Positions 36,215-51,158 of a DNA stretch of 64,000 bases are shown here, one piece after another. Source of the stretch: Candidatus Bathyarchaeota archaeon (GTDB lineage Archaea > Thermoproteota > Bathyarchaeia > Bathyarchaeales > Bathycorpusculaceae); NCBI GenBank assembly GCA_963715865.1, contig OY970280.1, positions 2,048,001-2,112,000 on the forward strand. The letters are read 5' to 3'. Numbering within the stretch: the stretch's first letter is position 1; the number at the start of each line of letters is the position of its first letter. A model generated the notes under the pieces. The model did no database searches. It had not been told where the DNA came from and saw nothing but the letters and a program-made list of their open reading frames with translations. Position numbers and translations under genes: made by a program.

Positions 36215-36510
36215 GAAAAAGCGATAACAAAGGTTAAATATTGCTTTAAAAAGAAAAAGAAGCTACGGAGTAGTCGTTATGACCGAATTAGAAATAGCTG
36301 TAGCTCCCATGCACAGGTTATGCAAAAAAGCTGGCGCTGACAGAGTAAGTGAGGCAGCAGCAAAGGAACTTGCAAAGGCACTTGAAGAAATTGGTGTAAA
36401 GATTGCTAAAGAAGCACTTGATTTTGCGATGCATGCTGGAAGAAAAACAATCAAAGCGGAAGATATTGAGATCGCCGCTAGAAAAGTCATGGGAAAATAG
36501 TAACCTAATA
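36215..36510 (+). repeat. About 296-bp duplicated segment (histone gene + promoter); inverted copy at 48961-49256
   Basis: GAAAAAGCGATAACAAAGGTTAAATATTGCTTTAAAAAGAAAAAGA is shared upstream of both histones. Confidence 0.9.
36279..36500 (+). CDS. Archaeal histone (HMf-type), copy 1
   Basis: [16 protein letters not shown]...[12 protein letters not shown]. Confidence 0.95.
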
Positions 36511-47420: not shown

Positions 47421-48763
47421 ACATTGCCTCTCCGAACAATTGAGCCACTACCTGCTTTAGCAACTATTTCCCCCTCATCAAAAACTAACAATCCGTTAAC
47501 GAAGGTTTTTACTGGTTTACCCTGAACGTCCCACCCATCGTAGGGCGAATATTTTGCTTTAGACTTGAATTTTGAGGCATCAATTTTGAATTTACGGTTA
47601 AAATCTACCACCGTTAAATCTGCATTTTTCCCTTGTTCCAAACGACCGCGATCATTCAAACCGTAAATTTCTGATGGTTTCTTTGCGAGAAGTTGAACCG
47701 CTTGGGCTAAGGATAACCGATTCTTCTTTACAAGTGTCAAAATAAGTGGCAAAGTAGTTTCTAAACCTGGCACGCCGACTTTAACATCCCAAACGCTGCT
47801 TGCAGACTTCTCACTCAAAGCATGCGGTGCATGGTCTGAGCCTAAAGCATCAACCCAACCCGCTTCCAAGCCTTTCCATAATGCTTCAATGTGATTTTTG
47901 TTGCGAAGCGGGGGCGTCATAATCAGCATTTGCCCATAACGGTTTAAATCATCACTTGCCAGCAGTAGATGGTTAGGGGTAACTTCGCATGTTACTTTTC
48001 CGCCTGATTTTTTAGCGTCCACAATGGCGTTTAAGCCCTCTTCAGTTGAGACATGGCAAAAATGCAATCGCACACCAGTCGGCGCACTTATTTTTAGTAG
48101 GCGTTCGATGGCTTTTAGTTCAACTGTCTCCGAATGCACCTTTAGAAAAGCGGCAGTGTTACTTTTTTTGGCTTGTTTTAGTTTTTCCTCGTTGGTTGTA
48201 AGCAAAGCCTTGTCTTCGGCGTGCACCGCCACTGGCACATTCAACTCGGCGACTTCTTTGAACGCATCCTGCAAGGCTTGGTCATCATCAACGTTTAATC
48301 CGCCGATTTGGCAACCCATGAAAAGCTTGAACCCTACTGCCCCTTCCGAAACGATGTCTTTTGCTTCAGCCAGTTTTTTGGGAAATTCAGAGTAGAACCC
48401 AACGTTAACAAGGACTTTTCTTTCGGCGATTCTCATGCGGTTCCTTAAAGTTTCCATGCTCATTGTGACTGGCTCGTTGTTAGGCATGTCTAAGACGGTG
48501 GTGAAGCCCCCGGCGGCTGCAGCAGCGGTTCCTGTTTGGAAGTCTTCTTTGTACGCTTTTCCCTCATCCCGCAAGTGAACATGCTCATCTATCAAGCCTG
48601 GTAGCACTAGAAGGTTTTTTAGGTTAGTTTTTTGGTCAGCGTTAGGCATTTGGGTTTCTTTGCCGATTTTGAAGATTTTGCCTTCTTCGATGGCGAGGCT
48701 ACAATCGATGATTTGCCCGTTGAGGTAGGCTTTGGCGTTTGTGAGGACAGAATCAACAATCAA
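47417..48763 (-). CDS. pyrC: Dihydroorotase-family amidohydrolase
   Basis: DEHVHLR, DMPNN, HAED, CHVST, GSDHAPH. Confidence 0.88.
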   Translation of the reverse strand: MIVDSVLTNAKAYLNGQIIDCSLAIEEGKIFKIGKETQMPNADQKTNLKNLLVLPGLIDEHVHLRDEGKAYKEDFQTGTAAAAAGGFTTVLDMPNNEPVTMSMETLRNRMRIAERKVLVNVGFYSEFPKKLAEAKDIVSEGAVGFKLFMGCQIGGLNVDDDQALQDAFKEVAELNVPVAVHAEDKALLTTNEEKLKQAKKSNTAAFLKVHSETVELKAIERLLKISAPTGVRLHFCHVSTEEGLNAIVDAKKSGGKVTCEVTPNHLLLASDDLNRYGQMLIMTPPLRNKNHIEALWKGLEAGWVDALGSDHAPHALSEKSASSVWDVKVGVPGLETTLPLILTLVKKNRLSLAQAVQLLAKKPSEIYGLNDRGRLEQGKNADLTVVDFNRKFKIDASKFKSKAKYSPYDGWDVQGKPVKTFVNGLLVFDEGEIVAKAGSGSIVRRGNV

Positions 48764-48871
48764 AGTCAGTTCACGGTCTATAGTGAATAGCGAGTGGTTT
48801 GATTAATTAAAGTTTATCAAGCTATTCGTTTTGATTTCAGTTTAAATTTTTTAATCCAATGAAAAATAAAT

Positions 48872-48899
48872 TGGAAAGCCGGGGTTGATTTGAACCCCT
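48872..48899 (-). pseudogene. Decayed tRNA 3'-end-like sequence
   Basis: Minus strand AGGGG-TTCAAAT-CAACC-CCGGCTT-T-CCA has tRNA T-loop/acceptor/CCA spacing but a mispaired T-stem. Confidence 0.35.
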
Positions 48900-48970
48900 G
48901 CCAGAGTGAGGTATCACCTGAACAACCTTTATTTTTTCCAGTGTGCTCTCCCTGCGCTGATATTAGATTA

Positions 48971-49192
48971 CTATTTTCCCATGACTTTTCTAGTAGCGAT
49001 CTCAATGTCTTTCGCTTTAATGGTTTTTCTTCGGGCATGCATAGCATAATCAAGTGCTTCTTTAGCAATCTTAACGCCAATCTCCTCGAGAACGTTTGCA
49101 AGCTCCTTCGCTGCTGCTTCACTCACCCTGTCTGCTCCAGCTTTCTTACATAATCTATGCATTGGAGCCACAGCTATTACTAATTCGTTCAT
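48971..49192 (-). CDS. Archaeal histone, copy 2 (variant)
   Basis: 65/73 aa identical to copy 1. Confidence 0.93.
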   Translation of the reverse strand: MNELVIAVAPMHRLCKKAGADRVSEAAAKELANVLEEIGVKIAKEALDYAMHARRKTIKAKDIEIATRKVMGK

Positions 49193-49610
49193 ATCGACTT
49201 CTCCGCAGCCTCTTTTTCTTTTTAAAGCAATATTTAACCTTTGTTATCGCTTTTTCCTCTAAATTAGAAAGCAACATCTTCTTTTTTTGTTTCTAAATTG
49301 ACTCATGTAAGGCTTTTTAGCTCCAAATTACAAGCTATTCGAAATGGAACCATTTAACTGAATAAGAAAGATGCCCTGATTCCCATATTATTTACATTCC
49401 GCTTACGCAATTAATAATTTCTACCTCTGCATCAATTATCATTCACTTCTGAATGGTTTGTCCAAGGCAAGCAATCGAAACCCAGACTCTATTAGAGATT
49501 TCATGGCTTAATTCTTGCGATTTCAATTAAAGAGCCTCAAATACAGCCATTGGCTTTAACAAATTATAAATACAAATTACTGACATATACAAAATCCCGA
49601 GGTTATATCA

Positions 49611-49667
49611 GTGGCGAAGAAACCAGTTAAGAAAGCAGCGAAGAAAGCTCCGGCAAAGAAAAAGTAA
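49611..49667 (+). CDS. 18-aa Lys/Ala/Pro-rich micropeptide MAKKPVKKAAKKAPAKKK
   Basis: GTG start, GAGGT SD at 49599-49603, TTATAAAT at 49564-49571, T-rich tract downstream. Confidence 0.7.
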   Translation: MAKKPVKKAAKKAPAKKK

Positions 49668-49838
49668 AACCTCGGCGTAGGCACATTTACTTCTCTTTTT
49701 TTTCTTTTCTAACGAGATCACTAATCAAAATTTTTAAGCTACAAAGCTAACTATTGTGCAGGTTAGCTATAGCTCTCCCCTGCACTGAAAGGCTTTTGCC
49801 ATTTGCCTTCTATTGGCATCTTCAGCCTATGGCTAATT

Positions 49839-50015
49839 ATGCTTGATTTAACTAGACCTTGTGATGCTTGCGGAAAGATGATTGGTGGCGGCTTCAGGTG
49901 TTGTCCTAAATGCCAAATTTACTTCTGCTTTCTATGCTCATATGAACTAATGTGTAGCCAAAAGAAGTCCCCACTGAAGTGCCCTATGTGCGGTGGAAAG
50001 CTTCTATATCCTTAA
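49839..50015 (+). CDS. Small Cys-rich zinc-finger protein
   Basis: CDAC...CCPKC...CFLC...CPMCGG. Confidence 0.7.
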   Translation: MLDLTRPCDACGKMIGGGFRCCPKCQIYFCFLCSYELMCSQKKSPLKCPMCGGKLLYP

Positions 50016-50117
50016 AGCAGTATTTTAGCCTAGTTTTCATTGGTGGGTCGACAAGATTCAAAATGTCAGTAGCAAAAGTGAGATAACCTTAAGAGCTAAA
50101 AATATCGAGTTATTGAT

Positions 50118-51158
50118 ATGCAAGAAAAAGAAGGCTCACGCGAACTTTTTATCTCTTATTCAACTGAAGATAAAGAATCAATTGCTAGACCCGTTGCTAA
50201 CGCATTAGTTAGGCAAGATTTTTCTGTTTGGTTTGATGAGTTTGAACTAAAAATTGGAGATAGCATTCGTGAATCAATCGATAAGGGGCTATCCCAATCT
50301 TCTTATGGCGTTGTGATTTTAAGCCCAAGTTATTTCGAAAGATATTGGACAATGGCTGAATTGAATGCCTTGGCAGCTCGTGAGAGCAATGGTAAGAAAG
50401 TAATCCTTCCTGTTTGGCATAACGTGGATAAAGATTACGTTCTGAAAAAGTCTCCTCTATTAGCAGATAGGTTTGCTGCTCGTTCCTCAGATGGAGTTGA
50501 AAACATAGTGCGAATGATTTCTGCTAAAATTAGGAAGGATGCCCCCGGTACAGTTATGGCTGAAATGGAAGGCATTCTTAGTGCTTTAGAAAATAAAAAA
50601 ATAGAAGAAATGAAGCAAGTAATTTCACAGGAGGATTTCGCCAAATTAAGAAAAGAATATAGAAATGTGCTTTGTGGCATAGGCTTTTTTGATATTAGTC
50701 CTACACCATCCAACATTAACATTTTTAGGTATTTGAGAGAGGCTATCGTTAATCGACCTGAAAACGAAGCTAAGGCGCTTTTTGAAGTTCTCTTAGAGTG
50801 GTATGTTGAAACGACAACCCCTTTTTCGAATGAGATGCTGTTGGAAATCTTTTCGGGTTTGGTTAAATTGCCTTTTGCCAAGGATGCTGTTAGGGAGAAG
50901 AAATTCTCAAAGTTGTTTGTTACCGAATTTGGGAAGAGTCATAATTGGGATAGGGCACTCATAACAACTCAAATTCTAGTTAATATTCAATCATTACTGT
51001 CTAAAAGCGAAAAAGCGAGAATCGTCGAATATATAATCTCTAATGATCAAATATACAGTTCATATGCAGCAAAAGGTTACTTGCAAAAGCTTCTGGATTA
51101 TTTTGAGGGCGATGTTGATCCGGGAAGACTTGATTCAGCAAGGAAATCGCTTGGATAG
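50118..51158 (+). CDS. TIR-domain protein with helical (ARM/HEAT-like) C-terminus
   Basis: LFISYS..D, VWFDEFEL, WTMAEL (catalytic Glu), ILPVWH. Confidence 0.9.
   Translation: MQEKEGSRELFISYSTEDKESIARPVANALVRQDFSVWFDEFELKIGDSIRESIDKGLSQSSYGVVILSPSYFERYWTMAELNALAARESNGKKVILPVWHNVDKDYVLKKSPLLADRFAARSSDGVENIVRMISAKIRKDAPGTVMAEMEGILSALENKKIEEMKQVISQEDFAKLRKEYRNVLCGIGFFDISPTPSNINIFRYLREAIVNRPENEAKALFEVLLEWYVETTTPFSNEMLLEIFSGLVKLPFAKDAVREKKFSKLFVTEFGKSHNWDRALITTQILVNIQSLLSKSEKARIVEYIISNDQIYSSYAAKGYLQKLLDYFEGDVDPGRLDSARKSLG

Follow-up and report, generated by a model that had tools for sequence, protein, structure and literature searches.

The window, the whole stretch of 64,000 nucleotides that was analysed, very probably carries a genuine, translated micro-gene at 49611–49667 that has a strong promoter, a ribosome-binding site and a terminator to itself, as judged from comparison of the sequence with its relatives. 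The micro-gene is kept by protein-level selection in peat Bathyarchaeia, and the form found in the window (type A) is, together with a fast-evolving histone paralogue, a two-gene module in the genus. Archaea are thought to be without linker histones, and their histones are mostly tail-less; a selected gene that codes solely for an H1-tail-like oligolysine and is co-inherited with a fast-evolving histone is a testable candidate for a chromatin component, and it bears on the compaction of the fibre and its regulation in mesophilic archaea. The family also illustrates that genes of 16–19 codons can be widespread and strongly selected. Such genes are invisible to standard gene callers and to protein databases with a floor of 20–30 aa, and Lys-rich micropeptides are also missed by trypsin-based proteomics. 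We set out here the type B paralogue, a putative ferritin-like ancestral context, the strict exclusion of Arg, the grounds for excluding an antisense gene and a histone tree.

The micro-gene and its coding frame

Inspection of the sequence revealed an 18-codon frame that ran from GTG to TAA (Table 1). The encoded peptide contained 9 Lys, 5 Ala, 2 Pro, 1 Val and 1 Met residues with a KK pair in every four residues, and both the composition and the spacing agreed with those reported in the preliminary description. That description had further proposed a complete, unannotated expression unit consisting of a TATA box, a GAGGT SD sequence, a GTG start and a T-rich terminator. We found every one of these elements in the sequence, and the unit was conserved. 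The TATA box was near-invariant in sets of 11 and 29 aligned orthologues, and the GAGG(T) sequence at 49599–49603 was located 8 nt ahead of the GTG at 49611, with its GAGG invariant across all orthologues in the alignment. The T-run occupied the same position in all type A orthologues and was also present in type B; the tract at 49686–49698 is likely to act as an archaeal transcription terminator. The transcription start was placed by the usual archaeal TATA-to-start spacing and is a prediction. An Rfam scan of positions 48000–51000 at E ≤ 10, which included the long-spacer insert described below, gave only chance-level matches, and the region of the micro-gene is therefore not a known RNA family.

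Table 1. Features of the micro-gene unit, the adjacent histone gene and the second micro-gene copy of the same genome
Feature	Position	Strand	Remarks
Archaeal TATA(-like) box, TTATAAATA	49564–49572	+	BRE-like AACAAA ahead of the box
Predicted short 5' UTR	49593–49610	+	contains the GAGG ribosome-binding site (49599–49602)
5' arm of inverted repeat, CCGAGGTT	49597–49604	+	spans the ribosome-binding site
CDS of the Lys/Ala/Pro micropeptide, type A, 18 codons	49611–49667	+	GTG start 49611–49613, 17 more sense codons, TAA 49665–49667; pN/pS 0.13
3' arm of inverted repeat, AACCTCGG	49668–49675	+	abuts the stop codon
Oligo-T tract, T8-C-T4	49686–49698	+	T8 at 49686–49693, T4 at 49695–49698
Divergent 73-aa histone paralogue, HARRK form	48971–49192	−	Pfam PF00808, E = 1.9e-11
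Type B copy in the window's own genome	G000:C1:1343944–1343994 (L076:1501–1551)	−	upstream of pyrD-pyrK; outside the window

Orthologues were searched for by BLAST with the 181-nt unit, which gave matches at 79–92% identity in 10 of 24 same-genus genomes. A covariance model built from these orthologues then yielded matches in 82 of the 120 genomes of the genus, and the matches fell into two score classes. The family was thus composed of two paralogues, type A, to which the window copy belongs, and type B, which has 16 codons. Selection was analyzed on 24 distinct ORF cores and 25 distinct full ORF sequences of type A and on 28 distinct ORFs of type B.

As evident from the substitution ratios, the proposed direction and phase of the frame were the most constrained of all six frames in both paralogues, with a pN/pS of 0.13 in type A and 0.19 in type B. 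The next-best type A frame was the antisense frame that shares the wobble positions (0.36), and the other four were close to 1, above 1 or interrupted by stops. Variable columns of type A were distributed over codon positions 1, 2 and 3 in the ratio 0:4:10. The Lys and Pro codons varied at the wobble base only, Ala2 was encoded by all four GCN codons, and the non-Lys residues Ala2, Pro5, Ala13 and Pro14 were kept through synonymous change. ATG and GTG starts were about equally frequent and interchangeable in type A, the stop was invariant, and the three length variants differed by whole codons. Purifying selection, retention of start and stop and in-frame indels are the marks of a genuine protein-coding small ORF, and all were found here. 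The preliminary description had looked to conservation of the frame in relatives, with variation at synonymous sites, as one of its checks; the low pN/pS, the four Ala2 codons and the in-frame indels bore it out.

Chance was assessed within the genome of 2.35 Mb (GC content 42.8%), in which only ten ORFs of 10–30 aa reached 45% Lys. Three of these lay behind an SD-like site and only two were at least 14 aa long, namely the window ORF and its 16-codon paralogue; the reversed genome contained no SD-preceded ORF that reached both 14 aa and 45% Lys. A degenerate codon pattern of the peptide architecture matched in 22 of the 251 genomes of the order and nowhere in the reversed control. The suggestion that the real gene is the antisense 35-aa Phe/Leu-rich ORF at 49577–49684 (−), or that the frame arose by chance in an A-rich spacer, can practically be set aside: although no orthologue interrupts the antisense frame and its pN/pS of 0.36–0.41 is below 1, the plus frame performs 2–3 times better, the substitutions would be radical in the antisense frame (the four Ala2 codons would read as Cys, Gly, Arg and Ser, and Pro CCA/CCG as Trp/Arg), the antisense start (CAC at 49682–49684) is not conserved, the TATA box, SD sequence and T-run all serve the plus strand, and the two reversed controls exclude a chance ORF.

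Two paralogues and the histone partner

Type A is the younger paralogue, and type B the older and more widespread one. Of the 120 genomes of the genus, 45 carried type A (51 matches of at least 141 bits to the covariance model), and type B, which formed the lower-scoring class, had a promoter, an SD sequence and a T-run as in type A. The extended promoter of type A was also found at type B. We considered a regulon sharing this promoter and rejected it, as, apart from the two paralogues, a single unrelated membrane-protein gene was the only site of the extended motif. This third site, at G000:C1:334197 (+), had 2 mismatches, and the product of its gene began with a hydrophobic, signal-like segment.

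Within the genus, type B was always located 130–205 nt upstream of pyrD, and five further genera of the family had the micro-gene 70–190 nt upstream of a gene for a 326-aa tandem ferritin-like protein, whose best NCBIfam matches were bacterioferritin and Dps models, all below the curated cut-offs. The ferritin-like gene (L083:358–1338 (−), L093:1736–2713 (+) and homologues) encoded an acidic protein without a Lys-rich tail. With regard to the other neighbor, the pyrD ORF of the window's genome, G000:C1:1342981–1343736 (−), encoded 251 aa compared with 306 aa in relatives and was followed by a 144-nt gap before pyrK; a frameshift, a truncation or an assembly error may account for its length. 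A link to pyrimidine genes, with pyrC near type A and pyrD near type B, was dismissed as a coincidence, since pyrC adjoins type A in the window's genome only.

A looser pattern revealed true micro-ORFs in seven genera of the family; a second Bathyarchaeia family contributed two more, and approximately 330 genomes from the rest of the phylum yielded one. These similar free-standing oligolysine micro-ORFs (L128 in G372, L129 in G386, and G711:C1:1204353–1204425), which may be homologous or convergent, had 14–19 codons and were all equipped with a TATA box and an SD sequence; they belonged to Bathyarchaeia family f17 and to one genome of a different class (f40). Codon patterns undercount the family, as the variant in genome G059 begins with Met-Pro-Lys, and loose-pattern matches that ended in TGG derived from an unrelated zinc-ribbon gene. 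The small zinc-ribbon protein, whose conserved N-terminus reads Met-Ala-Lys-Cys-Pro-Lys-Cys-Gly ... Lys-Lys-Lys-Trp, was present in most genera of family f1 (e.g., L117, L118, L120 and L121). Two genomes of the genus that are near-complete (a single contig in one case, 100% completeness in the other) had no copy recognizable by the loose pattern or upstream of pyrD, which indicates that the micro-gene is dispensable.

The preliminary description placed the micro-gene about 420 bp from a duplicated histone gene, and we measured 419 nt from the start of the divergently oriented histone gene at 49192 (−) to the micro-gene. In most relatives the two genes were arranged head-to-head with a gap of only approximately 125 nt. 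The window carried approximately 290 extra bases at 49260–49545, between the histone promoter and the micro-gene promoter, and a long spacer was also observed in a few relatives (gaps of 317–418 nt); the insert may be a MITE, a small RNA or a remnant.

The expected linkage to a histone across relatives was likewise recovered. Nearly all type A loci with sufficient flanking sequence had an adjoining histone gene (10 of 11 in one set); the histone gene was inverted yet still adjacent in three loci, and one type A locus with full flanks (L036) had no histone nearby. At least two histone genes were present in 43 of the 45 type A genomes compared with 8 of the 75 genomes without type A (Fisher's exact p = 7e-22, although the genomes are related and the association may reflect few events). 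In a tree of 70 histones, the canonical histone of the genus was nearly invariant, with 17 identical copies across genomes, and the other histone of the window, at 36279–36497 (+), was identical to it. The type A-adjacent histones were divergent, with branch lengths of 0.04–0.22, and fell mostly outside the canonical cluster. Adjacency to type A required 3 changes on this tree compared with a mean of 16.9 for shuffled labels. A few adjacent histones were identical or close to the canonical form, which suggests gene conversion between inverted copies. The HARRK loop of the window histone was common to many adjacent copies, and this histone is therefore an established paralogue and not a recent oddity of one genome.

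A histone carrying a fused Lys-rich tail was also sought as a direct tie between peptide and histone. The 120 closest relatives of the adjacent histone were 73 aa long and had no such tail, so no fusion among them connects the two; the few longer database entries proved to be mis-called upstream starts, and the fused form was rejected. No histone gene lay beside the type B copy or beside those of six other genera. The histone association concerns related genomes of one genus and may have originated in a single event.

Composition of the peptide and its possible role

Across 48 distinct peptides we counted 432 Lys and no Arg residues, compared with a K/(K+R) of 0.615 in the proteome of the window's genome; the remaining residues were Ala, Pro, Val, Glu, Thr, Gly, Asp, Ser and one Gln. 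A Lys-to-Arg replacement requires a single transition, and the absence of Arg therefore reflects selection for Lys itself. Pro5 and Pro14 were conserved, the center of the peptide was hypervariable and often acidic, and the length varied from 14 to 19 residues. Lys without Arg, combined with a variable center and a variable length, is the profile of fuzzy DNA-binding tails, such as the H1 C-terminal domain, HupB and Hc1.

Comparison with these proteins revealed clear similarities and equally clear differences. The micropeptide resembled the H1 C-terminal domain and the tail-only H1 of trypanosomatids in being a Lys/Ala/Pro-rich, Arg-poor polycation of low complexity with (A/S/T)PKK-like turns, as half of its 18 residues were Lys and a further seven Ala or Pro, and its gene was tied to a histone gene in the genome. 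In contrast, it was the product of a free-standing gene without detectable homology to H1, and at 18 residues the whole product was far shorter than the winged-helix domain of H1 (PF00538, approximately 75 residues), which it lacked. Chlamydia Hc1/Hc2, the C-terminal PAKKA repeats of mycobacterial HupB and the Lys-rich N-terminus of Dps share its residue alphabet and charge density, and it is their Lys-rich portion that brings about DNA condensation. However, their tails are 3–10 times longer and attached to folded domains, such as the HU fold or the N-domain of Hc1, whereas the micropeptide polycation is encoded alone and its ORF ended after 18 codons in the orthologues. In the case of Dps, one conserved neighbor of the micro-gene is itself a ferritin/Dps-like protein, without such a tail. 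Because it has no folded domain, the micropeptide is not a homologue of H1, Hc1 or HupB. The H1-like reading of the preliminary description is thus supported in part, for the tail-like composition (Lys/Ala/Pro without Arg); the likeness to H1 ends with composition, and the micropeptide belongs to none of the H1, Hc1, HU or eL41 families.

Among the roles considered, the most likely one, which we put forward tentatively, is that of a diffusible, Lys-specific polycation that works with the variant histone on DNA or chromatin. After the likely removal of Met, the mature product would be an unstructured polycation of 17–18 residues with a charge of +7 to +9, whose residues are limited to Lys, Ala, Pro, Val and Glu. 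In this genus, its gene forms a head-to-head cassette with that of a rapidly evolving extra histone, and in most relatives the two have an intergenic region of approximately 125 bp in common. The peptide could then serve as a diffusible counter-ion that neutralizes the phosphate charge of DNA that tail-less archaeal histones wrap or leave between them, by analogy with the fused tails of the H1 C-terminus, the tails of HU/HupB and the N-termini of Dps, and would tune compaction where the variant histone is in use. We infer DNA binding, an effect on compaction and a role for the stem described below.

A chromatin role is suggested by the Lys specificity, the persistent histone adjacency, the link to histone copy number, the divergence of the adjacent histones and the tail-less nature of these histones. 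The other conserved neighbor, found in at least five genera, is a tandem ferritin/Dps-like protein. Most archaeal histones are without tails, and no H1 homologues have been found in Archaea (PMC6136690). On the other side stand the type B copies and those of other genera, which are located away from histones, the sub-cut-off match of the ferritin-like protein, the absence of a fusion among the closest histones and the dispensability of the gene. Furthermore, so simple a polycation would equally bind RNA, ribosomes or polyphosphate.

Two other partners are considered at the same level, and either is improbable when taken singly. The peptide may be a ribosome- or RNA-associated micro-protein that was missed by annotation, similar to eL41, Thx, bS22 or bL37. 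These are also very short, very basic and readily missed (bS22 and bL37 were once unannotated too), and they resemble the micropeptide in size and strong basicity; the strong promoter of the micro-gene and the neighborhoods of type B and of the other genera, which show no link to chromatin, fit such a role as well. The known peptides are, however, Arg-rich, sequence-conserved helices or coils that are set in rRNA and contain no acidic residues. The micropeptide, by comparison, has no Arg in any of the 48 sequences, has conserved Pro residues and frequent Glu, Asp and Gly, and varies freely in length and central residues, which is unlike peptides embedded in rRNA. In addition, the gene is gone from some complete or near-complete genomes of the genus and is not near ribosomal genes. 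Bathyarchaeota are listed as without an annotated eL41 (PMC9932298, Table 1), and for this reason the ribosomal idea is not to be dismissed on annotation alone. When all six frames of the genome were searched with PF05162 (eL41), nothing matched at E ≤ 10, with a profile that is weak on prokaryotes and whose controls matched only below the cut-off. Taken with the lack of Arg, the conserved Pro and the common Glu/Asp at the center, which do not suit the uninterrupted Arg/Lys-rich helix of eL41, free of Pro and acidic residues, this led us to reject an identity with eL41 and weakened the ribosomal reading as a whole.

The second of these would give the polycation a different partner, such as polyphosphate, an acidic protein, a condensate or the cell envelope, and would regard the histone adjacency as inherited synteny. 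The composition is silent on which polyanion is bound, and the genomic context differs by lineage (a histone gene, pyrD or the ferritin-like gene), which speaks for such a view. The co-occurrence with the variant histone and the lasting adjacency to it would then need another explanation, and the residue alphabet provides neither a signal peptide nor a hydrophobic segment for a role at the envelope.

The inverted repeat and its possible bearing on translation

The 8-bp inverted repeat pairs the ribosome-binding site with the bases just past the stop codon, and it formed the terminal stem in both the minimum free energy fold and the centroid fold. Its cores, CCGAGG and CCTCGG, did not vary among 29 type A segments, which leaves no covariation to score in type A. 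Over 34 transcript models, the SD sequence was predicted to be paired with P = 0.88, compared with 0.67 when the 3' UTR was shuffled, which is modest support. The whole transcript folded no better than its shuffles (z = +1.28), and it is the terminal stem alone that stands out. An anti-SD element was also sought in type B; CCCTCA preceded the T-run in most copies of the genus and CTCCCA in other genera, and this candidate was rejected as inconsistent. Since a consistent anti-SD element is missing from type B and from the other genera, translational gating or stabilization of the mRNA is proposed for type A only, where the stem probably limits or conditions translation or, alternatively, stabilizes the mRNA of approximately 110 nt.

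Joined to the chromatin role, the stem would allow a more far-reaching proposal, which from the sequences at hand we regard as unlikely. The peptide would be a free-standing histone tail, or linker polycation, provided in trans by a separate gene of 18 codons that co-evolved with a specialized histone paralogue, and would represent the first functional analogue of H1 in archaea; its translation would be gated by the SD-sequestering stem, so that compaction of the hypernucleosome could be switched on demand.

The stem also bears on a reading in which translation matters and the peptide does not, the ORF being a cis-acting sensor of Lys codons or ribosome stalling, or part of a dual-function small RNA. 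We consider this less probable still than the ribosomal and other-polyanion alternatives. Lys is the sole basic residue, an oligo-T tract follows the ORF, and type B always lies 130–205 nt upstream of a co-directional pyrD or ferritin-like gene. Type A, however, has no conserved co-directional gene downstream, as the next ORF is convergent in relatives and belongs to an unrelated island in the window, and no lysine-metabolism genes are nearby. An attenuator should precede the gene that it regulates, and in type B the pyrD or ferritin-like gene begins 70–205 nt away, past the T-run. Selection at an attenuator would also fall on the regulatory codons alone, whereas Ala2, Pro5, Ala13 and Pro14 were preserved through synonymous change; to our knowledge, leader-peptide attenuation is not established in archaea. 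In favor of a cis-acting element are also the sequestration of the SD sequence by a conserved stem and the conservation of the untranslated regions relative to their surroundings: the pairwise difference was 0.22–0.24 from the promoter to the start codon and in the first 30 nt of the 3' UTR, compared with 0.37–0.49 in the surrounding DNA.
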